From Escherichia phage ESCO5, in the sequence record NC_047776.2: a DNA stretch of 64,000 nt, one strand, 5' to 3'. Made by a program: the position numbers and the translations under genes. The notes under the pieces were generated by a model, which saw only the letters and a list, made by a program, of their open reading frames with translations, did no database searches and had not been told where the DNA came from. Shown piece after piece: positions 2,970-64,000 of the stretch. How positions within the stretch are numbered: position 1 is the first letter of the stretch; every line of letters starts with the position of its first letter.

Positions 2970-4031
2970 ATGGCGAAGCCAATATATTATCCTGACTGGG
3001 CTACACAAACTGTAACGCTCCCAGGAACTTTAAACACAAACAAAATTAGACCTAAAGAAACCATCCGCACAATTGGTATGGATTATGGTCAAATCATGAC
3101 TTGCGAAGAAATGAACTGGATTCTTAATAATATCGGTTTATGGATTCGCTATTTGGTGGATGACTTTCTTCCAACTTTACCTGATACTTACTTGCCTTTA
3201 ATTGGAACTAAGATTACAATGGCAGGTGATGCTACTGGTGAGGCTACTTGGAATGGTAATAAAGAAGTTACTTTATCTATCCAAGTTCAAGATAATAGTC
3301 ATAATCACTTGTCGGCAAACATTACAGATGCCACTAGTTCAACAGTAACACCAAACGTGTTGGTAAAACGTGATGCAGGTGGTGCTATTTACGGTGGTGA
3401 TATTTATGTTAATGGCACTTCCACAACAGATCCTGCAACACTGTTCTTCAAAAACTTTGCAGGACAAACGAATGGTGAGATTTCTGCCGAGTATCAAAGC
3501 GGAGGTCAGCTTTACATCTATCGTAGAAATCCTAGCACAGGTAGTGTATCGGCAGGTGTTCGTTTATATGATGCAGGTTATGTTCTAATAGATAATCCAA
3601 GATCAAACAGTGGACAAGACACTTCTAACGGAAATGCTTTAGTTCGTTTAGATTATCTGAACTCTCGTTTGACTTCCCTTCAGAATACATTGCAGACGAA
3701 TATTAACACTGTTCAAAACAACTTGAATAATGTTAACAACAACCTCTCTTCTCGTATAAACAATGTAGAAAGTAATCATCAAAGTCAGATTACAAATAAC
3801 TACAACTATGCTAACGGAACCTTTGTAAGAGATATTCGTTATACTAGCCAAGGTGTGTATTATCCACCAGGGAACGAGGTTTCTTGGACTTATATCTGTT
3901 CTTCTGGTTATGTTCTTTCTGGTATTATCGTACAGGAAACAGGACGTAGCTCTGCGGATAACATCGGTGGGGTTTACTTCAAACGCCTCCAGCGCAACGT
4001 TAACGGAAACTGGTACGATATTGGAGGCTAA
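2970..4031 (+). CDS. tail fibre protein
   Basis: 353 aa with N/Q-rich heptad-like segment (NTVQNNLNNVNNNLSSRINNVESN) and Gly/Ser/Thr-rich C-terminal part; sits in the fibre gene block. Confidence 0.5.
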   Translation: MAKPIYYPDWATQTVTLPGTLNTNKIRPKETIRTIGMDYGQIMTCEEMNWILNNIGLWIRYLVDDFLPTLPDTYLPLIGTKITMAGDATGEATWNGNKEVTLSIQVQDNSHNHLSANITDATSSTVTPNVLVKRDAGGAIYGGDIYVNGTSTTDPATLFFKNFAGQTNGEISAEYQSGGQLYIYRRNPSTGSVSAGVRLYDAGYVLIDNPRSNSGQDTSNGNALVRLDYLNSRLTSLQNTLQTNINTVQNNLNNVNNNLSSRINNVESNHQSQITNNYNYANGTFVRDIRYTSQGVYYPPGNEVSWTYICSSGYVLSGIIVQETGRSSADNIGGVYFKRLQRNVNGNWYDIGG

Positions 4032-4577
4032 ATGATATTTACAAACTTTAAAAAATATATTCCTGAAGACCCTGAACTAAAAGAATTGGTAGAAGCAGAG
4101 AACATTCTTTTTCTTCGTTGCGATCAAGGTTACGATTGGTATGATTTACGTAGCACAGAATTCAATAACGATAAAATGAAAGTCGTTTTTGATGATCAAA
4201 ATCGTATTGTGTTTTGGAATACTGATCCTACACTACTTTGCCCTGAAGATCTTTCTATAGCACAAGTAGACTTTAACATAGATACTTTTGAGGATATTAG
4301 GAACAAGGTTCTGGATTTAGAAACCTTAACTCTTAAGAATAAAGAGTATTCCCGTGAAGAGTTGATGACACAAGCTAGTGCAAAAATTCGCTCTTTACAA
4401 GAAACAGCGGTAGCACTTATAACACCTTTACAGTATGCTAAAGATTTAGAAATGGCTACTGAAGACGAATTAGCTTATCTTAAAAATCTTCAAGTTTATG
4501 TAGTTAAACTAAATCGTGTTCCGCTTCAAAAAGACTATCCTTACGCTATAGATTGGCCTACATTACCGACAGAATAA
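4032..4577 (+). CDS. hypothetical protein, possible tail fibre assembly factor
   Basis: 181-aa ORF immediately after the fibre gene with overlapping stop/start (TAAATG); context only. Confidence 0.35.
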   Translation: MIFTNFKKYIPEDPELKELVEAENILFLRCDQGYDWYDLRSTEFNNDKMKVVFDDQNRIVFWNTDPTLLCPEDLSIAQVDFNIDTFEDIRNKVLDLETLTLKNKEYSREELMTQASAKIRSLQETAVALITPLQYAKDLEMATEDELAYLKNLQVYVVKLNRVPLQKDYPYAIDWPTLPTE

Positions 4578-4586
4578 GGGATCACT

Positions 4587-4922
4587 ATGGAATTTCAAGA
4601 AGCATGGGGACTTGCAAAGGATGCAATAATCCCTTTAATCGGAGTCATCTGGTTCTTTTTCAAACAAAAAATGGATAAATTCGGCTCTGATCTTGAGGAA
4701 ATGGAGGAGAAAAGTCGAGAGCTAGAGAAGAAGTTGGTCTTTGTTGAATCAACTTATGCAACTAAAGCCGAACTTACCCAGATGCTAAATCAAATTAACT
4801 CTACATTAATGGCAAATAATAACACTCTTGAGCAAAAAATTGAAAAGATTATGGACCTCAAGAATGCGACTATCCAAATGATGCTAGATGACATAGTTAA
4901 ACGTACACAGAATAAGGGGTAA
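4587..4922 (+). CDS. hypothetical membrane-anchored coiled-coil protein
   Basis: 111 aa; N-terminal hydrophobic helix (IIPLIGVIWFFF) followed by a predicted coiled coil. Confidence 0.45.
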   Translation: MEFQEAWGLAKDAIIPLIGVIWFFFKQKMDKFGSDLEEMEEKSRELEKKLVFVESTYATKAELTQMLNQINSTLMANNNTLEQKIEKIMDLKNATIQMMLDDIVKRTQNKG

Positions 4923-4925
4923 TTA

Positions 4926-7900
4926 ATGGCAACATTCCCAACATATCCAGCAACGTCTCTCGAACAGGGCGTAGACCTGGTTATTTTCTCATCTAACCAA
5001 CTCCATGATGTTATTAATGGAAGTGCTACAGAGAGTATTGAAACAGAATCAGGGTTGATACCAACCCTGAGAAAATCCCTTGTTGACAACTTTTTCTTTA
5101 AAAGCCCATTGGATTGGGCGCAAGGCACAAACGAAACAGTTTTTAACCAACTACGTTATTTTCAGAATGGGGTATTGAGCGGTTATTATTATGCTCCTAA
5201 TGCTACATTGGTAAACCCAATTCCTATGCAAGGGACTCCAGTAGGAGATAACAACTGGGTATTGTGGGGACTGAAGACAGAACAACTAGCAACAGAAGTC
5301 ACCCCTTGGGTATATTCTGGTGCAACTGGTTATGAAACAGTAATCAGTCCTCCCTACATCTTTGATAGTGCTATTGTTACAATCAATGGTGTTATTCAGG
5401 TTCTGGGAGAAGCTTTCCGCATAGAAGATAGTAAAATCATTTTATCTGAACCTTTGGGACATGATCCTGCAACAGGACTGCCAAACAAGCTTTTTGCCTA
5501 TATTGGTAAAATCGTAGCTTCCGCAGATACAGATCCTAACTTAGAAAACCGTCTTGTCAGTTTAGAAACAAAAACTGAAGAACTGACAGAAAACATGGAT
5601 AAAGTACCTTTACAAACTATTGCTCGTAAATACGGTTTGTTGGATGACGAAGTAGCTTACGCAACAGCGGGTCAATCATTAACAGGGATTAAAGCTCTGT
5701 ATGATCCGGTAGCACAATCTTCCTACACATTGCCTCCTAACATCACAGGGACTTTAACATCTTTGTCTGTTTCTGGAGTAATGACTTATTCTGGCGGATC
5801 TGTAGATCTTTCTGCATTAGCTGTTGAACGTGGACAGTTTGTTCATTTGCCTACAAGCTTTGGTAATAATGTAACTCTGACAGCTAAAAATCAGACGATT
5901 GGGCGTGGCGCTGGTCGCTATCGTTGGGCGGGAAGTTTACCAAAAAGTATTTTAGCTTCTGATACATTGGAAACAAGTGGTGGATTAGGTCCAAATGCAT
6001 GGGTTCTAACTAATACAGAAGGACTGTTAACCCCTCGTGGTGGAACATACAACGATTTATTCGATGTTGTCCGCTTATCAGAATTTGCTAACAATACAAC
6101 TACCTATACCACACCAGAAGCAGCTTTCCAGGCGGCACTGTTAGCAGCAAAAGCTTCGAAAAGTAAGATTCTCGACGCTTACGGTTGTGATATGACTTTC
6201 ACGACAAGCTCTTTTGATATTCAAGATATCACTTTGCGTGGGGGTGTGTTCCGTGGTCAACGCGATTATCGTGTGCAAAATGCTACAGTAGAAGGCACAA
6301 CTTTCCGTAACTCTCGTGTTATGTATTGGGGTGGTGCTGTGCGCATGTTCGATTGTTTGTGGGACGGTGCTCCTCGCGCAGGTCAAGTTGGTAGCTTGGT
6401 ATTCCAAGGAAACCCAATATCAGGTACTTTTGAAATTGATAATTGTACTTTTAAAAACGGGTTATATGGCATCCTTCAACAAGGAACAGGGGAACCAGTA
6501 ACACGCGGTGTCTTCCGTAACCTTACCTTCATGGACATGCAAGGTGATGCAATAGAACTGAACGTCATCAATAAACATTATGATGATGGTTGTGTGATTG
6601 AGAATATTTACCTGTCTAATATTGATGGGACTAACGCTCCTATTCCTCTGTCCAACTGGGGTATCGGTATTGGTGTGGCTGGTAAAGGACCATATGGTTA
6701 CGGAATTCCTGATGATCAATATTGCAAGAATATTACAATTCGTAACGTTTTTGCAAAACGTTGTCGTCAGATTGTCCACGTAGAAGTTGGTCGTAATATT
6801 TCTATCGAAAACATTCATGGCGATCCAGATCAAACTGTATCTGTTGGGACAGGTTTGGCAACTGGCGCAGTTGTAATGTATGGAAGTAAAGATTTTACGA
6901 TTGATGGTGTTTACGGAGAGCCTAAAACAGACGGTAGCACACTTGCAAGTAATATCCGTATGATTTATTTGGAGTGGGGAACTAACGCAGTTCTGGATGA
7001 AGAGGGCAATCCGGTAGTTCCGGCACAGGGCAGACCTTCAAACCCATGCTTTAACTATTCTGTTCGTAACATTCACACCAAAACTGGGCGTGTTTTTGCA
7101 GGAGTTTCCGCTGGGCCAGGTTATGAAAACAGAGTCAGCTTTGAGAATATCCATTGTGCTGCGTTGCAGTTGTTCGGTGTAGCTTCTTGGCTTTCAATGT
7201 CTAACATCACCTGTAATATCTTTGATTGTGTTGGTCAACCTGAATCTGGTCCAGGGACATTTTATGATGGATTCTTCCGTAGAGAAAAATCTGTTCTTGA
7301 GATGGTTAACGTAAACTGTTACCCAGATGGCAAGACTATGGTTACTGGTCGCCCACAGTGGAGCCGTTGCCGTTACTCTGATATTCATCGTGTCAACTGT
7401 AATGTTGAAGCTAATATGTATACCAATATCGCAGGTGGTATTGGAGCTATTGTAGGGACAACTGGCAAAGTTTATTACTTAGAGCCTAACCCTAGCCGAA
7501 ACATTGATGGGATGCATTTCCCAACAGGGAAGGAGTTTGACAAAGGGGATATGATAGTCAAAGCGGATAATACGTTCTTCCTTGTAACAACAAGTGGGGC
7601 ATACATTCCAGATATCCCAGCTTTCGGTATTCGAGCTACACAAGCAGGAGATACCTTCCTGACACAGAACTTGACTCCTAATGGGACAGCAACAAACGCT
7701 TCTTGGTTGTATCACTATCCTCTGTCAGCAGGAACACGTATCCGTATTCCTGGTGCTGGTGTAGGTGGAGCAGATTTGGACACAGTTATTACTCGTGCAC
7801 CTTATCAAGATAATGATACGTGGACTAACCCAGTTAAAATAGACATTGCAGATCCAATTGTAACGCCTACGAGTGCTGGAGTTAGAATCAAAACCATACC

Positions 7901-14995: not shown

Positions 14996-15163
14996 TTATA
15001 CCTCTAAACGGAAAGTTTCTTTAGATACAAAATCGTATCCACCTTTTTCAAGCCAGTCATTGTAAACCTCATCAGCTTGAGACTCTATCATAAAATACCG
15101 AGTGGTAATTTCGTCTCCGACAATACGCACAATTTTATAGCAAATCATGATACCATTTCCCAT
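14996..15163 (-). CDS. hypothetical small protein (below the ORF-track cutoff)
   Basis: 55 codons; GGAGG 7 nt upstream of the ATG; TAATG overlap with the upstream gene stop. Confidence 0.3.
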   Translation of the reverse strand: MGNGIMICYKIVRIVGDEITTRYFMIESQADEVYNDWLEKGGYDFVSKETFRLEV

Positions 15164-54610: not shown

Positions 54611-54852
54611 TATTTTAACTTTTTTCATTTTTAGAACAAAGGCGTCACTTTGTAGCACAGAAATAAGGCTCCTACAGCACCGTAGAGAGCCTATTATTTT
54701 GTCCTATACAAACCCTTGTCTTTTTCAGTTTGCATCACTAGGATTCGATCTGAGTGGGTTCCTGAAGGTCTGCCAATAAGATTAAAGGTTATCTCAAATT
54801 CCCACTACCTATTATCTCAAAAATCCCTCAAATTATTTAAACTTTTTAAGAA

Positions 54853-55038
54853 TTTACAAAAGTGAAAGTTGAAAACCAAAATTTAAAGTTTAGGAAAATT
54901 ATCTTAAAATGTCAGATACAAAACAAAACTCAAAAGTCAAGGAAAATTTTAAAAATTTTGCGCGCCCACAGTATTTAAAGTTTTTTTGCTTTTACAAAAA
55001 TGAAAGTACAAAAGCAAAATTTAAAGTTTACAAAAATT
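54853..55038. repeat. iteron-like imperfect direct repeats in an AT-rich non-coding region
   Basis: About 48-bp units at 54853-54900 and 54991-55038 (roughly 42 of 48 identical), with a degenerate third copy between them. Confidence 0.5.
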
Positions 55039-55050
55039 TATGCAGATGGG

Positions 55051-55166
55051 AATGAGAAGAGTTCTCATATGGAAATGCAAATGATAATGATTCGCATTTA
55101 GGTTTATAAATGAGATTGATTCTTATTTGATAAGGTAAATGATAATCATTCTCATTTAGAGAATGA
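55051..55166. promoter_or_regulatory. array of four palindromic operator-like sites, two closely matching the Fur-box 7-1-7 pattern
   Basis: ATGAGAA-gag-TTCTCAT (55052-55068); TGATAATgATTCGCA (55082-55096); aaatgagattgattcttattt (55108-55128); TGATAATcATTCTCA (55140-55154) with TCATTCTC/GAGAATGA inverted repeat; spacing about 29 bp. Confidence 0.45.
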
Positions 55167-55415
55167 CGCGCAGGGGCGGTGTTTGTCTCGCGCTCCCGTG
55201 TCCCCTCGCCATGTAATAAGAATAACAGATCCAGCCAGGAAAGCAAGCGATTATTTTATCTTTACATTTCTTTACAAATATATAGCGCCCAGCCTACCGG
55301 CGATCAACCTTCCAACCAGCGCCCTGGTATGTTAGCCCCGCCTTTACGCCGTGGGGGTGGCGCTTCCTCTTCTGTATGTAAAACAGTATAAGCCCGATCC
55401 CTGGGCTTGTCAAGA

Positions 55416-59753: not shown

Positions 59754-60136
59754 AAACAGAAATCATTATTGAAATCATCAACGGCTATAAAGAAGCCTTT
59801 ATTTTTGCTGAATCAGCAAGGGATCATGAAGGTAATTTTATTGATAACTTAGACGATTATGATTTTTCTCCTAGCGCGGACGAACGGATCGCCCAAGATG
59901 TAACAGCCTTTATTAATGCTAATCTTGCCGCTATCTCTGAGGCAATGAGCGACGGCGCAACAGCCAACCAGATCGGGAATGATTTACATTTTACCCGTAA
60001 CGGTCACGGCGTAGGCTTTTGGGATCGCCCTGAAATATACACCACTAACACGGCGAACCGCCTAACCAATGCAGCTAAGTTTATGCCGAACGTGTCGGCT
60101 TACATTGGTGAAGATAATTTGATTTATATTGAATAA
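59750..60136 (+). CDS. hypothetical early-type protein
   Basis: 128-aa ORF; ATGA overlap with the upstream gene. Confidence 0.5.
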   Translation: MKTEIIIEIINGYKEAFIFAESARDHEGNFIDNLDDYDFSPSADERIAQDVTAFINANLAAISEAMSDGATANQIGNDLHFTRNGHGVGFWDRPEIYTTNTANRLTNAAKFMPNVSAYIGEDNLIYIE

Positions 60137-60142
60137 AAAGTA

Positions 60143-60254
60143 TTGACACAGATCGCCAGTGTGCTAATATTTACCACGTAGGGCGGCAATGGTGCCGCTG
60201 ACACAGATCGCCAGTGTGCTAATATTTACCACGTAGGGCGGCAATGGTGCCGCC
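60143..60254 (+). promoter_or_regulatory. tandemly duplicated promoter plus stem-loop cassette
   Basis: TTGACA at 60143-60148; the 55-bp unit gacacagatcgccagtgtgctaatatttaccacgtagggcggcaatggtgccgc(t/c) occurs twice head-to-tail (60145-60199, 60200-60254). Confidence 0.6.
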
Positions 60255-60272
60255 GATAATGAGGAAAGTAAA

Positions 60273-60572
60273 ATGGAAACTATCGCTATTGTTACCGTAG
60301 AAAAACTGGTTGTTGGTGATGTATTCGCGTTAATGGTGCCTAACAGCAGCAAGCTGGGCGCTTATGAAGTAATGGATCATAAAAATGAATCATTTGGCGA
60401 CGGTTGCACAATGGCGGTAAAATCTTTAAAGGATGGAATCATCCGCCAGGCTAACTGGCACAAAGGGAATCAAGTCGGTTTAATATCAGCTAATTTCTTG
60501 CCAGAAGAGCAAACGTTAGACCAACTATCAGGCGGTAAGACGTTAGCCGAACTACTGGAAACAGCGATCTAA
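60273..60572 (+). CDS. hypothetical early-type protein
   Basis: 99-aa ORF with RBS GAGGAAAG. Confidence 0.5.
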   Translation: METIAIVTVEKLVVGDVFALMVPNSSKLGAYEVMDHKNESFGDGCTMAVKSLKDGIIRQANWHKGNQVGLISANFLPEEQTLDQLSGGKTLAELLETAI

Positions 60573-60580
60573 TCAACAAA

Positions 60581-60596
60581 GGGGCGGCAACGCCCC
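60581..60596 (+). promoter_or_regulatory. intercistronic GC stem-loop (no -35/-10 recognised)
   Basis: ggggcg-gcaa-cgcccc between two genes, no U-tract; likely RNA stability or processing element. Confidence 0.4.
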
Positions 60597-60616
60597 ACAT
60601 CAGAAAGGAAAAGATT

Positions 60617-60853
60617 ATGAGTATTGCAACAGTATTAAACGCCGTTAAAACCGCTGAATCATCCGGCTTGCATGTTGAGCTTATAGATCAACCAGGTGGC
60701 GATCTCCTTGTCCAGGTTTACCCGCCGAAAGTAGGGGATGATTATTATTGGGCTTATTCTGATACGTTCGAACAAGTAGACACGAAAGCGATCACGGCTT
60801 TTATTTTAAAAACTATTGAAGAAAATAACTTTCATCATAACATCAATCAATAA
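60617..60853 (+). CDS. hypothetical small early-type protein
   Basis: 78-aa ORF. Confidence 0.5.
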   Translation: MSIATVLNAVKTAESSGLHVELIDQPGGDLLVQVYPPKVGDDYYWAYSDTFEQVDTKAITAFILKTIEENNFHHNINQ

Positions 60854-60863
60854 ACCATAAGCG

Positions 60864-60879
60864 GGGCGGTAACGCCCCA
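60864..60879 (+). promoter_or_regulatory. intercistronic GC stem-loop
   Basis: ggggcg-gtaa-cgcccc, same type as at 60581. Confidence 0.4.
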
Positions 60880-60907
60880 TTAAACGCAATAGGAAGAGGA
60901 TAGACGC

Positions 60908-61198
60908 ATGAAAAAGATGATCGCAGTAGTTGCCCTGGTTGTTGGTATTAACGCGCCTGTACTGGCTAATGAGTTGCCAGAATCCATCACGCTAACCGAT
61001 ATCAACGCAATAAACCGGATCGGCGTTAATTATCGCCTATGCCTTGCCGCTAAAACTTTCCAGGACGGCACGACAGAATACCACGGATTCGAGGGTATCC
61101 GCTGCGGTGAGCTTGCACGCGACCTTAAGGAAGATCCAGACCTTGAGGCCATACCGATGACCGTAAACGGTAAAGCTTACGTAAACCGCCAACAATGA
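60908..61198 (+). CDS. hypothetical secreted protein
   Basis: 96 aa; N-terminal signal-like MKKMIAVVALVVGINAPVLA. Confidence 0.5.
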   Translation: MKKMIAVVALVVGINAPVLANELPESITLTDINAINRIGVNYRLCLAAKTFQDGTTEYHGFEGIRCGELARDLKEDPDLEAIPMTVNGKAYVNRQQ

Positions 61199-61215
61199 GA
61201 AAGGTAATCATCACA

Positions 61216-61329
61216 ATGGGGATCGTAGTAGCAACGCTGGCGCTTATCCCCTTCATGGTTGAACATGTGCTGATCAGTGTTGTCCTTGTAGTCAGTGACC
61301 TATTGGAAACGGTTGGCACCTGGTTTTAA
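61216..61329 (+). CDS. hypothetical 37-aa membrane peptide
   Basis: RBS AAAGGTAA then ATG; hydrophobic product; followed by a terminator-like hairpin. Confidence 0.3.
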   Translation: MGIVVATLALIPFMVEHVLISVVLVVSDLLETVGTWF

Positions 61330-61334
61330 GATAA

Positions 61335-61366
61335 TAAATAGGGCTTGCAATAGTCCTATTTTTTGT
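61335..61366 (+). terminator. terminator-like hairpin with T-run
   Basis: Imperfect hairpin tagggc...gtccta followed by ttttttg. Confidence 0.35.
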
Positions 61367-61503
61367 TATACTTATTGAACGGGCGGCACCTGGGAGCAGG
61401 GGAAGATAATCACCGGAAGACCCCGCTATATATTGATAACTAACGCCTATCAAACAACAAAACATCAAAGGAACAAACTATCAAATCTTTACAATTCTAC
61501 CTA

Positions 61504-61562
61504 TTGACACCGGATCACGCTTACATTATTATTTATCACGTAGGGCGGGAATGTTTCCCGCC
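61504..61562 (+). promoter_or_regulatory. promoter plus 5' stem-loop cassette
   Basis: TTGACA-N17-TATTAT, hairpin ggcgggaa-tg-tttcccgcc. Confidence 0.55.
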
Positions 61563-61580
61563 TGATTTAGGAGTCATATC

Positions 61581-61814
61581 ATGATCGAACAAATTAAAAG
61601 CACTAAACCAAATGTTAACGGTAATGTTTCTCACTTTATCGGGGATAATGAAAGAGGTACACCGTACGCCGCCGTAACCGTTCAACCGAACGGGGATTAT
61701 TGGTTTACCGTGTACGGATCTTACTCTTTTGGACGTTCGGCACATGATAAGATCTTGCAAGTGGTTAAGCCTACTGGGAAGAATATCACAGCAGAAAAAT
61801 TTTATAAAAAATAG
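61581..61814 (+). CDS. hypothetical small early-type protein
   Basis: 77-aa ORF with RBS AGGAG. Confidence 0.5.
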   Translation: MIEQIKSTKPNVNGNVSHFIGDNERGTPYAAVTVQPNGDYWFTVYGSYSFGRSAHDKILQVVKPTGKNITAEKFYKK

Positions 61815-61815
61815 C

Positions 61816-61875
61816 TTGCTTTATAGCTCCTGTTAACTTATAGTTATTGCGTAGGGCGAGCAATACAGCAAGCCC
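61816..61875 (+). promoter_or_regulatory. promoter plus 5' stem-loop cassette (variant)
   Basis: TTGCTT-N17-TATAGT then gcgtagggcgagcaatacagcaagccc. Confidence 0.45.
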
Positions 61876-61892
61876 ACAAAGAGGAAAATAAA

Positions 61893-62261
61893 ATGAGCAA
61901 ATCAGCAATTAAAGCACTTGAAAAAGCACAAGAAGTGATCGCAACGTCAACCACTGGCGCAAAGGTTAATCTCGTTTGTTATCTGACAGATGAAACTATC
62001 CGTAAAAATTGGCGTAATGCTGATTTACTGGCTTGCTTATTGATTAATAGTGTCGCTAATGCTTTCCAGTGTGAAACAGCCGAGAGCCTGGAGGAAAACT
62101 TGTTTGATAATATGGATCAAGCCATTGAAACCTATATACAATCAAACCTGGATAGCTGGAACAGTAAAACATGGCCCGACAATTTACGCGATACAACTGA
62201 TCAACTGATCCGCCTTGCCCTGATGGTTGAACGCGATAACGTTCACAACCGCACAAAGTAA
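61893..62261 (+). CDS. hypothetical early-type protein
   Basis: 122-aa ORF with RBS AGAGGAAA. Confidence 0.5.
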   Translation: MSKSAIKALEKAQEVIATSTTGAKVNLVCYLTDETIRKNWRNADLLACLLINSVANAFQCETAESLEENLFDNMDQAIETYIQSNLDSWNSKTWPDNLRDTTDQLIRLALMVERDNVHNRTK

Positions 62262-62326
62262 GATTATACAAGGGCGCACTAAGCGCCCTTTAACGTAAAG
62301 AAATGTAAATAATGCGCTATCCCCTA

Positions 62327-62355
62327 TTGACAGGGGATCGGCGTTATATTATATT
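62327..62355 (+). promoter_or_regulatory. sigma70-like promoter (TTGACA-N17-TATATT)
   Basis: The -35 sits in a small palindrome cccctattgacagggg; preceded by hairpin agggcgcactaagcgccct at about 62270-62290. Confidence 0.5.
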
Positions 62356-62400
62356 TAACTCACTGGCAGCAAACAACGAAATGAAACAAAGGATAACAAC

Positions 62401-62820
62401 ATGAACATTAAATCAAATAATCCGGCTTACTCTTTCGATAATGCTTTTTGTCACGGGAGCGCCGCTAAAGGCTTCGAAATTGAGGGTAAGCTGGTTATTG
62501 TGAACGTTGACGGGGAAGAGGTTGCAGTATATCCGGCAAACGATGTTAAAAGCCGTCTACAATGCCGCATGGATGTTACCGCATATCAGCTTGATCCGAT
62601 CCGTGTAGTTGCCCTGGTCCTGGAGGAAGAGATCAAAGCAATGCATCATAGCAATAAGTTTATTGGTGACGCGCAGGACAATATGAAAGTATGCCGCAGT
62701 AAAGTTAACGAAGCATTGAAAGAATACGGTTTTAAGGATCTGATGATTAAACGTGATGAAAAATTCCGCTTTCGTAATGACCTGGCGAACCGGATCTACT
62801 CAATCTATGAAGCGTTATAA
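62401..62820 (+). CDS. hypothetical early-type protein
   Basis: 139-aa ORF, last gene before the terminator and the non-coding region. Confidence 0.5.
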   Translation: MNIKSNNPAYSFDNAFCHGSAAKGFEIEGKLVIVNVDGEEVAVYPANDVKSRLQCRMDVTAYQLDPIRVVALVLEEEIKAMHHSNKFIGDAQDNMKVCRSKVNEALKEYGFKDLMIKRDEKFRFRNDLANRIYSIYEAL

Positions 62821-62834
62821 TTGACAACAAAACA

Positions 62835-62862
62835 AGGGCGCACCAAGCGCCCTTTCTTTTTG
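62835..62862 (+). terminator. rho-independent terminator
   Basis: agggcg-caccaa-gcgccct hairpin followed by ttctttttg. Confidence 0.65.
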
Positions 62863-63069
62863 CCCGAACAATGTTGATAGATTCCGCCTATGAAAAACCG
62901 ACACAGAACAAAATTGCATAATTTGCGCTATCGAGCTAATCAACCAGCAAACGAATAACCATACACCCCAGGGTTACAGGCTGTTAGAGAGCTATTTAGA
63001 GCGGTTAAAATCGATCAACAACCAACAACAAACAACCGAAAAAGGCTGTTTTCTTCCTTTCCAGTGCAA

Positions 63070-63084
63070 TGATAACCATTATCA
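63070..63084. promoter_or_regulatory. Fur-box-like 7-1-7 palindrome
   Basis: TGATAAC-C-ATTATCA matches the Fur 7-1-7 consensus (tGATAATnATTATCa) at 14 of 15 positions. Confidence 0.4.
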
Positions 63085-63139
63085 TCTACCCTTGCGTATC
63101 TATACAATATAAGTGCATAACTATAATGTTGATAATAGT

Positions 63140-63330
63140 TCGCAACAACTAACCAACCAACAACCTAAAACAATAAGCAAACTAATCATAATCAAAGGAA
63201 TAATAGCAAGATGATTGATAACGACAAACAATCAAACCATGATGAATACTAAGCAAGATAACGATAACACGACAAAACAACCAACTAACGAACAATAACA
63301 AACGAAACCATTAAAATAATAACTATTAGC
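63140..63330 (+). repeat. A+C-rich strand-skewed low-complexity region (non-coding)
   Basis: About 190 bp made almost entirely of A and C with few G or T (caacaactaaccaaccaacaacctaaaacaataagcaaac...); no ORF. Confidence 0.5.
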
Positions 63331-63480
63331 AAAATAGTGCCTGAATGAAATCATTACAAAACGAATCATTCACAGAGTCATCATTAGCACGCTATGCCGG
63401 ACACATAGCGAGCTAATAATAAGCCAACTACACCCCAACAATCATAACCATCGGTGACGGTTATTTCTTGTTACTGCGTA

Positions 63481-63499
63481 GCTTGCAATAATTGCAAGC
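63481..63499. repeat. perfect 19-bp palindrome
   Basis: gcttgcaat-a-attgcaagc. Confidence 0.6.
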
Positions 63500-63823
63500 G
63501 TAATGACGCTTACACTTATTGCGCTGGCTTATTATTAGCATTATATGTAATTACCAAGATCATAACATTAGCGCAATAACAATAATCATTGTAATGATTA
63601 TGTAAGGAAACAATTAGCATGGCAATAATTATGGGGGCAATGGGAGGATGATTATCATCATTCCGATACATTGCACACTATGCACATAATAGAATAAAAG
63701 TCAATAATTTTGGGGGCGAAATGTTACCGCCACAGGCGGGAATGTTGAGCAAGTTCTCTTAAACGTAAATAAAATCAGAAAATTCTTGATTTATTTTGGC
63801 TTTTATGTTAATAAACGTTTAAA

Positions 63824-63838
63824 TAATAATCATTCTCA
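63824..63838. promoter_or_regulatory. Fur-box-like palindrome
   Basis: TAATAAT-C-ATTCTCA, same half-site (ATTCTCA) as at 55140-55154; related sites at 63581-63601 and 63648-63663. Confidence 0.35.
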
Positions 63839-64000
63839 TATAAATAATAGTCTGCTTGTCATGAGCGGGATTAGTTGACATTGTTCCGTCATATGATGAA
63901 GTTGCCAAACCATTGATAAATAAGTGTTTGTGTGATTTATAATCAAGTGGCCCACCTTGTCGCTATGTTGGCATGAGCCTTGCATAAGTCATTGAATACG

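Follow-up and report, generated by a model that had tools for sequence, protein, structure and literature searches.

The gene-free stretch at the right edge of the window (the whole 64,000 nucleotides of DNA analyzed) very probably forms the non-coding right terminus of a linear Phapecoctavirus genome that ends in short direct terminal repeats (DTRs). The window belongs to a Phapecoctavirus, a phAPEC8-like myovirus; the region is 97.5% identical to that of Schickermooser, and matches over 80% or more of its length occur in 63 phage records. A sequence-only reading of this DNA had listed a genome-end or packaging region among its options, and the left DTR boundary of the phage group indeed maps to 63747|63748. 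As judged by comparison with the relatives, the genome-end reading is correct, and it is already known for this subfamily. We add to it a shared boundary motif with flanking units, a covarying fold, and candidate Fur boxes at kept positions.

The terminal repeat and its boundary

The region lies between two rightward arrays of small genes, as in phi92 and other Stephanstirmvirinae. The gene-free gap measures ~1.54 kb in the relative ZCKP1 and extends ~360 bp beyond the window end, so that the region is clipped by the window. Up to position 63747, the layout is a terminator followed by ~885 bp of conserved unique sequence, which holds Fur box A, the A/C-rich tract, the six-helix fold with its palindrome, and the hairpin units; the DTR then begins at 63748. 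The features of this framework are as follows.

62834-62864, plus strand: intrinsic terminator closing the upstream small-gene operon (8-bp stem with 6 G-C pairs, T-run)
62865-63060, no strand: conserved non-coding block, 87-94% identity across 8 Phapecoctavirus-type phages
63623-63680, plus strand: upstream unit copy GGGGGC – hairpin – ACATTGCACA, direct repeat D12 (63623-63638/63702-63717)
63702-63751, plus strand: terminal unit of GGGGGCGAA, hairpin, and ATGTTG|AGCA
63748-64000, plus strand: first 253 bp of the DTR, a 328/329-bp repeat whose remaining 75-76 bp lie past the window end

The terminator noted upstream of the region was recovered as a hairpin at 62834-62854 followed by a T-run; it also scores on the minus strand and is conserved in all relatives. 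The adjoining block contains a second hairpin (63030-63051), and its sub-blocks GATAGCTTTTACCTAT and GAATAGATCGCGGTATCGAGCTAATCAA recur in phi92 and KP13-26. As first noted, no ORF of at least 60 aa occurs in 62863-64000, the longest having 51 aa. Among nine small ORFs on both strands, most of which start with TTG or GTG, variable sites were spread evenly over codon positions with no third-position excess. Protein-coding small genes, as annotated in the ETEC-TG and WPEC records, were rejected given that substitutions had no codon-position bias, and the hydrophobic minus-strand ORFs and a 13-aa ORF at 63211-63252 were likewise rejected as genes on the absence of a codon-position signal. A tRNA/tmRNA scan of the window returned none. 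Pattern scans of IMG/VR, metagenomes, and bacterial genomes returned 4-7 and 6 loci, every one of which belonged to this phage group, and 0 bacterial loci.

The window holds a single clipped copy of the DTR, and the position of the boundary was taken from the repeats of relatives. In Schickermooser, an exact terminal repeat of 329 bp starts on the left at the equivalent of window position 63748, and Mt1B1_P17 carries an exact 328-bp repeat with identical boundaries. A terminal repeat of 328 bp has been reported for Schickermooser (Korf 2019, PMC6563267), and a further published statement agrees with a terminal repeat in this phage group (PMC12695924). The phi92 RefSeq record (NC_023693) annotates 343-bp DTR-L and DTR-R with the boundaries TTTGTTG|AGCC and CGCGTTA|AGCAC, and BME3 has a 342-bp repeat, which its authors reported from PhageTerm. 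Both boundaries have a common conserved context, GTTR|AGCA(C), which reads ATGTTG|AGCA on the left and CGCGTT(A)|AGCAC on the right with an ambiguity of 1 nt. The left motif at 63747|63748 is invariant in 9 phages, even though the interior of the DTR is only 63-64% identical in the Wec phages, and sequence comparison places homologous boundaries in phi92, BME3, Tr1, and KP13-26.

Units of the form GGGGGCGAA–hairpin–ATGTTGAGCA precede the left DTR boundary. In the terminal unit, GGGGGCGAA occupies 63712-63720, the hairpin CCGCC-ACA-GGCGG 63727-63739, and ATGTTG|AGCA 63742-63751; the hairpin has a 5-bp stem and a 3-nt loop, and its sequence varies between phages while self-complementarity is kept. 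There are three copies of the terminal unit in nepoznato and KP13-26 and two in Tr1, and the upstream unit type occurs only in the window, ZCKP1, ETEC-TG, and nepoznato. We found no description of the shared boundary motif and flanking units in the literature searched on this phage group. The two papers cited above, the BME3 report, and the phi92 annotation (PMC6563267, PMC12695924, NC_023693) give the repeat or its length and leave the boundary motif, units, fold, and Fur boxes undescribed.

We propose that the terminase would recognize the repeated units and cut at the GTTR|AGCA sites in replicated concatemers, and that the repeat would be duplicated so that each virion DNA has a copy at both ends in T7-type fashion. 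The two boundary motifs stand in direct rather than inverted orientation, which counts against the proposed cutting given that the classical staggered-nick model more simply predicts inverted sites. The DTR would also carry host-type early promoters firing at the first-injected end, for which a position-weight-matrix scan returned two candidates.

63875-63880 (-35), plus strand: sigma-70-like candidate TTGACA-17-GAAGTT
63913-63918/63938-63943, plus strand: sigma-70-like candidate TTGATA-19-TATAAT

At the equivalent DTR offset (+137), phi92 has TTGACA-17-TAGACT. Counts of sigma-70 promoters were no higher than in shuffled sequence, and the hits at 63875-63943 are therefore candidates only. A literature search for transcriptomes of this subfamily found none.

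Candidate Fur boxes near the genome ends

Four Fur-like sites had been proposed in this region. We scored sites against the 7-1-7 consensus TGATAATnATTATCA over 14 positions with a cut at 2 mismatches, alongside the 19-bp Fur consensus GATAATGATAATCATTATC (PMC4506495), and two of the four stood.

63065-63084, no strand: candidate Fur box A, core TGATAACCATTATCA at 63070-63084, 1/14 mismatch, invariant in 9 phages
63824-63838, no strand: candidate Fur box B, TAATAATCATTCTCA, 2/14 mismatches, 76-90 bp inside the DTR

The sites at 63581-63601 and 63648-63663 were rejected, with 4-5 mismatches of 19, a location in the variable zone, and no conservation in relatives; the latter is the hairpin of the upstream unit copy. 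A third candidate, box C, lies just past the window end with 1/14 mismatch.

The matches are non-random and their positions conserved. The stringency scan returned 5 matches in the whole window (region-composition Markov expectation 0.039, P ~0.001). Fur-like boxes equivalent to box A are present in phi92/BME3/muut, KP13-26, and KP2025, and the Tr1 sequence at this position is a weaker match, GATGATAATATTATCATT, above the 2-mismatch cut. Box B is invariant in 9 phages despite the 63-64% identity of the Wec DTR interior. Its counterpart in phi92/BME3/muut, at +78, is a perfect 15-mer; the phi92 DTR site has 0/14 mismatches, and the phi92 Fur site matches the 19-bp consensus at 17/19 positions. 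The distance from box B to the left DTR end is 76-79 bp in the lineage of the window and Phapecoctavirus, in phi92, and in Tr1, and +104 in KP13-26. Box C is 55-59 bp from the right DTR end in ZCKP1 and phi92, has a counterpart with 3 mismatches in KP13-26, and is absent in Tr1. Comparison of the homologous region in related phages, which the first reading had suggested as a check, found the DTR boundary, the fold, and boxes A and B kept across relatives.

The boxes recur at kept positions in four other lineages (six lineages by another count) and in rV5, whose non-coding gap holds 3 of the 5 Fur-type matches found in 48 kb. The LL12 paper places the 459-bp repeat of the rV5 group in a non-coding region between two convergent transcripts; the rV5 gap may be this location, going by the matching gene layout and similar coordinates only. 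Measured from either physical end, near-consensus boxes lie ~55-90 bp in, and another precedes the A/C tract.

We hypothesize that host Fur would bind boxes A, B, and C and there either repress the DTR promoters in an iron-dependent manner or play an architectural role as a host factor at the ends. A rival view, which we hold to be possible but doubtful, is that Fur does not bind these boxes, which would instead be promoter or structural sequence of high AT content, or operators for a protein encoded by the phage. The boxes do look like -10 hexamers, and being AT-rich they could be bound by another protein. Box A lies between a weak -35-like TTTCCA and a -10-like TATCAT, and box C overlaps a -10-like GATAAT; these overlapping promoters are weak -35/-10 candidates, and promoter-like counts were no higher than in shuffles. 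Our search for Fur boxes in lytic phage genomes found no paper linking the two, nor any description of candidate Fur boxes near genome ends. Against this rival stand the specificity of the match (0-2 mismatches of 14, and 17/19 in phi92), the rarity of the boxes elsewhere in the window, their conserved position across lineages, and their occurrence in rV5. The IHF consensus had only 1 match in the region, with no enrichment.

A covarying fold and an A/C-rich tract

Between box A and the hairpin units lie the tract, the fold, and two perfect palindromes.

63136-63340, plus strand: A/C-rich tract with little G, which reads G/T-rich on the minus strand and has the window's top A+C content
63390-63539, minus strand: six-helix fold of ~150 nt, from covariation in 25 sequences
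63390-63397/63403-63410, minus strand: fold helix H1
63412-63426/63525-63539, minus strand: fold helix P1
63429-63433/63476-63480, minus strand: fold stem
63444-63452/63456-63464, minus strand: fold helix H2
63481-63488/63492-63499, minus strand: fold palindrome hairpin
63507-63509/63521-63523, minus strand: fold short stem
63481-63499, no strand: perfect palindrome GCTTGCAAT-A-ATTGCAAGC (9+1+9)
63582-63601, no strand: second perfect palindrome (9+2+9), variable zone
63597-63625, minus strand: promoter candidate TTGCCA-17-CATAAT, upstream of the fold in the minus sense

The fold is under selection for base pairing. Over 48 pairs in 25 sequences from ~6 lineages, 99.6% of cells were paired and 13 pairs had changed on both sides; 0 of 500 shuffles reached the observed values, and slid controls were 26-50% paired. 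Only the minus strand makes all 48 pairs canonical, with 70 cells that are G.U pairs there and read as A.C on the plus strand; the plus-strand reading was 93.8% canonical with 0 G.U. The minimum free energy was -76.4 kcal/mol (z -8.6) for the minus strand versus -56.5 (z -6.9) for the plus strand, and the consensus fold energy was -60.9 versus -47.6 kcal/mol. The plus-strand reading, worse in both pair canonicity and folding energy, was rejected. Searches of Rfam 15 gave 0 matches at E <= 1 over 60000-64000 and, at E <= 10 over 63330-63640 (311 nt), a best score of 18.7 bits against a gathering threshold of 50; we found no description of the fold in the literature searched. The earlier idea of a cluster of regulatory RNAs thus survives at best in part, as one covarying structured element on the minus strand with no Rfam match.

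The perfect palindrome at 63481-63499 was confirmed and is unique in the window. Its 8-bp arms are invariant in 25/25 sequences, its center varies (TAA, TTA, CAA), and a scan of 185,579 bacterial genomes did not find it. The palindrome forms one of the fold's hairpins or would bind a dimeric protein. Conservation of the second palindrome does not extend to ZCKP1, phAPEC8, or the Wec phages. Together they are 2 of the 5 such palindromes in the 64-kb window, with 0.045 expected per region.

The fold could be the gene for a minus-sense structured ncRNA, transcribed leftward from near 63600, close to the DTR, through the G/U-rich, C-poor tract; we regard this as a serious possibility with somewhat less than an even chance. 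Such an RNA would act in packaging, replication priming, or regulation and would be compatible with the genome-end explanation. The strand asymmetries of pairing and consensus energy favor it, as do promoter-like minus-strand sites upstream of the fold in several lineages (in Wec188, phi92, and KP13-26, similar candidates are found 100-150 nt to the right of the palindrome), the minus-strand score of the terminator at 62834-62854, and the expectation that a C-poor untranslated transcript would escape Rho. However, the promoter candidate is not conserved in ZCKP1 and phAPEC8, an Rfam relative is absent, the wobble asymmetry may partly reflect A/C-rich composition or strand-biased mutation, and single-stranded minus-strand DNA would yield identical counts.

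The tract had been described as almost only A and C, which is overstated: positions 63140-63330 contain 53% A, 21% C, 16% T, and 9% G (A+C 74.9%). No other 191-nt stretch of the window is as A+C-rich, however, and the value lies 5 SD above the mean. We rejected the tract as uniquely G-poor given that other 200-nt windows are equally so and only the A+C skew is extreme. The tract is 94-99% identical among 9 phages; exceptional conservation was rejected as well, given that a neighboring gene is equally conserved (97% identity to the Wec phages), and the near-invariance may stem from a mosaic module that these phages share, with no special constraint on the tract. Other genera have a different sequence here but keep G at 2-5% per 150 nt.

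Three further readings of the fold and tract are less probable. In the first, the region would be a replication origin in which an initiator binds the TATTATTAGC iterons and the palindrome, and unwinding takes place in the AT-rich, G-poor tract. Tr1 and KP13-26 each have the core TATTATTAGC as one inverted and three direct copies adjoining a low-GC tract; 3-4 copies are present in these two phages and 2 full copies, as an inverted pair, in the window, and the longer form GGTATTATTAGC is common only to the KP13-26 copies. The GC content of the tract is 28-30%. The two full window copies, however, form both arms of helix P1, and the distal, non-iteron part of P1 covaries too, which favors pairing over an iteron role. 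Only 1 DnaA box occurs in the region, with 1 mismatch (21 such in the whole window), and there is no enrichment; GC is lowest elsewhere in the window, at 54830; and the element directly adjoins the DTR cut site. The origin proposed earlier found no specific support, and we consider it unlikely.

The tract could also yield a plus-sense, Fur-repressed unstructured RNA serving as a sponge or regulator, which would start at the Fur box A promoter (-10-like TATAAT at 63122-63127) and end at H2 plus a T-run. The C/A-rich unstructured RNA of the first reading holds to the extent that a plus-sense transcript would be unstructured (fold z = -0.2); the RNA itself is only predicted. A second Fur-like box with a -10-like hexamer just upstream occurs in several lineages; TTTCTTGTT follows H2, and AAN triplets are abundant. 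Against these points, an adequate -35 element is absent, H2 has an AT-rich stem that, read on the plus strand, contains A.C mismatches in 11 cells, conservation of the tract sequence does not reach across genera, and an untranslated G-poor RNA would be a Rho substrate; we think this RNA very unlikely. Improbable to about the same degree as the origin is a Rho-loading (rut) role for the tract, which would halt terminator read-through before the packaging signals and repeat. The tract is untranslated and unstructured, and composition rather than sequence is conserved between genera, with C/G ratios of up to 18-19 in phi92, muut, and Tr1 and of 3.6 in the window. The window tract, however, has only 10 YC dinucleotides in 205 nt, and its C/G ratio is in the top 1-5% of the window and not unique, which makes a Rho-loading role weak in this lineage.

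Returning to the genome-end explanation, we infer roles for the Fur boxes, the fold, and the A/C tract. In phi92-like and rV5-like phages, Fur may be a host factor conserved at the termini, where it would gate immediate-early transcription by iron or organize or protect the ends, with the minus-sense RNA acting in end processing or packaging; this reading of the sequence is tentative, and we would not expect it to hold in full. To our knowledge, neither a Fur role at termini nor a terminal minus-sense structured RNA has been described for lytic phages.

Relation to known systems

The DTRs of phi92 (DTR-L/DTR-R, NC_023693), Schickermooser (328 bp), and BME3 (342 bp) are homologous in sequence, with the boundaries GTTG|AGC... 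and ...CGCGTT(A)|AGCAC. Those of phi92 and other Stephanstirmvirinae have a similar length (328-343 bp) and an equivalent place between rightward small-gene arrays. There is no essential difference from these repeats, and the window stops 75-76 bp before the right boundary.

In concatemer junctions of the T7 type, the terminal repeat is flanked by short repeats and packaging signals. The region resembles this type in its short non-permuted repeat, fixed ends, adjacent short repeats, and host-type early promoters at the first-injected end. Unlike T7, there is no sequence similarity, the phage is a large myovirus without a phage RNA polymerase, the units consist of a G-run, hairpin, and cut motif, and the boundary motifs are direct. 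Lambda cosB combines terminase-binding repeats with a site for the host factor IHF beside the cut site, and here too repeated elements and a host DNA-binding-protein motif adjoin the putative terminase cut site; the ends here, however, are repeats and not cohesive, and the host motif is a putative Fur box rather than an IHF site. In phi29, packaging uses the pRNA, a structured RNA whose gene lies close to a genome end. The multi-helix fold encoded beside the terminus is comparable by analogy only; it has no Rfam match, and the RNA is putative. As in Fur-repressed bacterial promoters (GATAATGATAATCATTATC, PMC4506495), the boxes match the 7-1-7 and 19-bp consensus near -10/-35-like hexamers; unlike those, they lie in a lytic phage terminal repeat with no iron-related gene downstream, and their promoters are weak predictions.

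The terminus as such is routine, given that short DTRs are already annotated or reported in the subfamily. The new part is the comparative anatomy, a shared cut motif with candidate repeated recognition units, which offers testable handles on DNA cutting and packaging in large rV5/phi92-like therapeutic phages. The covarying minus-sense fold beside the repeat and the Fur boxes are two unexplored layers; the latter would tie the first minutes of infection to host iron status, which bears on phage efficacy in iron-limited body sites. The DTR position also helps to orient and trim genome records, a good many of which begin at an arbitrary place in the region. In the BME3 record, we set aside the DTR annotation, which is shifted 73 nt from the record's own exact terminal repeat; the tail of this record carries a 585-bp duplicate.

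The terminal repeat and the gene-free stretch

The stretch at 62863-64000 matches 71 phage records, 63 of which cover at least 80% of it, and all save a handful belong to Phapecoctavirus (phAPEC8-like myoviruses of ~150 kb, subfamily Stephanstirmvirinae), with Schickermooser the best match at 97.5% identity. The proposal that a genome end lies here was right, given that exact or annotated terminal repeats of relatives place the left end of the direct terminal repeat (DTR) at window position 63748. The two ends of the Schickermooser record share an exact 329-bp repeat that begins with this base (328 bp according to its authors; PMC6563267), and the independently sequenced Mt1B1_P17 contains an exact repeat of 328 bp that is bounded identically. 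The phi92 reference genome is annotated with a DTR-L and a DTR-R of 343 bp each, and the BME3 record, for which a 342-bp repeat was reported from PhageTerm, contains an exact terminal repeat of that length at the homologous position. Because the repeats of relatives start at 63748, the stretch comprises the last 885 bp of unique sequence and the first 253 bp of the repeat, whose right boundary lies 75-76 bp past the window end. That the region is a genome end is already known for the phage group: Stephanstirmvirinae genomes terminate in direct terminal repeats (PMC12695924), and in the sister rV5 group a 459-bp repeat lies inside a non-coding gap (PMC6658697).

Features of the region
62834-62854, 8-bp stem followed by a T-run, terminator scoring on the minus strand too
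63070-63084, Fur-like box A
63136-63340, A/C-rich, G-poor tract (plus strand)
63390-63539, minus strand, conserved six-helix fold
63481-63499, perfect palindrome (9+1+9), one hairpin of the fold
63582-63601, perfect palindrome (9+2+9)
63623-63680, degenerate copy of the boundary unit
63748, first base of the DTR
63824-63838, Fur-like box B
just past the window end, Fur-like box C

The terminator stood up to analysis, and no open reading frame of 60 aa or more was found in the stretch, as had been claimed. In the ZCKP1 record, where the region is internal, it sits in a gene-free gap of ~1.54 kb with a rightward array of small hypothetical genes on either side; the window end cuts this gap ~360 bp short. 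The ETEC-TG (3953-5468) and WPEC records annotate five to eight tiny hypothetical genes across the region, mostly on the minus strand. These are probably over-calls, since variable sites in nine small ORFs compared over nine phages were spread evenly across codon positions, with no coding signal. A 13-codon ORF at 63211-63252 (MIDNDKQSNHDEY), 10 nt downstream of AAGGAA, is conserved within Phapecoctavirus; it was not seen in the phi92, Tr1 and KP13-26 sequences compared and has no coding signal.

Only some GenBank records of the genus were opened at the true repeat ends, and many open or close at differing arbitrary points within 62863-64000 (ESCO13 at 62897, MRostami-2023b exactly at the window end, Ro121lw and REC elsewhere). 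In the BME3 record (PP239276), the DTR-L annotation is displaced by 73 nt from the exact repeat, and the tail contains a second copy of head positions 204-788 (585 bp), followed by 73 nt and the 342-bp repeat; the duplicate and the shifted annotation look like a record-assembly artefact.

Boundary motif and repeated units

The left boundary of the repeat reads ATGTTG↓AGCA(A/C) and the right CGCGTT(A)↓AGCAC, with 1 nt ambiguous between records. The left motif is invariant in nine of nine Phapecoctavirus-type phages and the right is kept in these nine, the sole deviation being Wec188 (CGCGTTCAGCA); in the Wec phages the repeat interior is only 63-64% identical despite the conserved boundaries. 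The same contexts bound the phi92 and BME3 repeats and predict repeats of ~320-344 bp in Tr1, KP13-26, KP2025 and Wec188. At the left boundary stands the last copy of a repeated three-part unit made up of a G-run (GGGGGCGAA), a hairpin with a 5-bp stem and 3-nt loop, and ATGTTGAGCA. The hairpin varies in sequence between phages while its self-complementarity is kept. Three copies occur in nepoznato, three in KP13-26 and two in Tr1, and the degenerate upstream copy in the window includes, as its hairpin, the site at 63648-63663. Position and conservation suggest that the terminase would recognise the repeated units and cut at GTTR↓AGCA. As sequence features, the cut-site motif and the units have good support, and no description of them was found in the literature searched.

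In nepoznato (~990-1130; alignment columns 1016-1154), a 140-bp insertion directly left of the repeat brings the GGGGGCG – hairpin – ATGTTGAGCAC unit to three copies. Behind the two additional ones stands TAAGAGAAG or TAAGAAAAG; the former is the reverse complement of CTTCTCTTA, the sequence after the true boundary, and the latter is one base off CTTCTCTTA.

A conserved minus-strand fold and the A/C-rich tract

An alignment of 25 sequences, drawn from GenBank phages and from IMG/VR and metagenome contigs and including phi92-type phages, Tr1, KP13-26 and three further lineages, yielded a consensus structure of six helices. On the minus strand its 48 pairs are 99.6% paired, with both sides changed in 13; none of 500 shuffles reached any measure, and slid controls were 26-50% paired. 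The same pairs on the plus strand are 93.8% canonical with zero G.U, compared to 70 G.U cells on the minus strand, and single-sequence folding was better for the minus strand by 20 kcal/mol. The minus-sense fold is well supported as a sequence feature; no Rfam family matches it or the region, and the literature searched held no description of it.

A minus-sense RNA is the simplest reading of these patterns, and candidate promoters for it are present, though not universal among relatives; the fold may instead act as single-stranded minus-strand DNA. The distal part of the long-range helix P1 (63412-63426 with 63525-63539) covaries (GCC/GGC, CGC/GCG, CCGC/GCGG, CAC/GTG) and is absent from the additional copies of TATTATTAGC in Tr1 and KP13-26, which argues for pairing over mere iteron identity. 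The arms of the 63481-63499 palindrome, confirmed as perfect, are invariant in the alignment, so this one hairpin could equally well be a site for a protein. Five perfect palindromes of this kind occur in the 64 kb, two of them in the region (expected, 0.045), and that at 63481-63499 was absent from 185,579 bacterial genomes.

The description of the neighbouring tract as almost only A and C was overstated (74.9% A+C; A 53%, C 21%), but no 191-nt segment of the window has a higher A+C content (5 SD above the mean), and the suggestion of an unstructured C/A-rich RNA agrees with folding to the extent that a plus-sense RNA, if made, would be unstructured. The tract is 94-99% identical among nine phages, and the neighbouring gene is also 97% identical to that of the Wec phages. 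Between genera the sequence is not conserved, whereas plus-strand G-depletion is (2-5% G per 150 nt in phi92, Tr1 and KP13-26). Such a tract could load Rho, a weak case here given only 10 YC dinucleotides; it may also be the C-poor body of a minus-sense RNA, or a spacer.

Fur-like boxes and a second AT-rich stretch

Against a 7-1-7 consensus, two of the Fur-like sites in the sequence-only reading held, box A (1 mismatch) and box B (2 mismatches), while 63581-63601 and 63648-63663 were weak and fall where close relatives differ from one another. Five matches of this quality occur in the whole window, against an expectation of 0.039 for the region. The positions of boxes A, B and C are conserved in several lineages. 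The first precedes the A/C-rich tract in the Phapecoctavirus and Wec phages, phi92/BME3/muut, KP13-26 and KP2025, with only a weaker match in Tr1. Box B is inside the repeat, 76-79 bp from its left end in Phapecoctavirus, phi92 and Tr1; in KP13-26 its offset is +104. In ZCKP1 and phi92, 55-59 bp separate box C from the right boundary; KP13-26 has a 3-mismatch counterpart and Tr1 none. The repeat box of phi92, BME3 and muut is a perfect 15-mer and agrees with the 19-bp consensus (PMC4506495) at 17 of 19 positions. A -10-like GATAAT overlaps box C, and weak -35/-10 hexamers flank box A. The conserved boxes are well supported as sequence features, and Fur may bind and act there; our literature search found no paper on Fur boxes in lytic phage genomes.

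A further Fur-like box, weaker than box A, is separated from it by an inverted repeat, TATGCA-N6-7-TGCATA, which is conserved at 63100-63127 (TATACA in the window) and at the homologous sites of phi92 and KP13-26 and is followed by a -10-like CATAAT/TATAAT.

In rV5, three of five Fur-box hits in 48 kb sit within its 2.6-kb non-coding gap. This gap (NC_011041, 14013-16618) separates convergent gene arrays and has boxes at 15002, 15118 and 15662; the other two (26909, 27045) belong to a different intergenic stretch. The gap lacks the cut motif, palindrome and iteron of the Stephanstirmvirinae. According to the LL12 paper, the rV5-group repeat sits in a non-coding region on which two transcripts converge (PMC6658697), and gene layout and similar coordinates suggest that the gap may be that region.

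The suggestion of an origin in the flagged region found no support, and the 200-nt segment with the least GC in the 64 kb (22%, at 54830) lies outside it. That segment falls within a second large, very AT-rich non-coding stretch at 54620-55300, which holds the sole other good Fur-box matches (55082-55096, 2 mismatches; 55140-55154, 1 mismatch) and repeated AAATTTAAAGTTTA-type units, and which may serve as an origin or as a further promoter region under Fur control.
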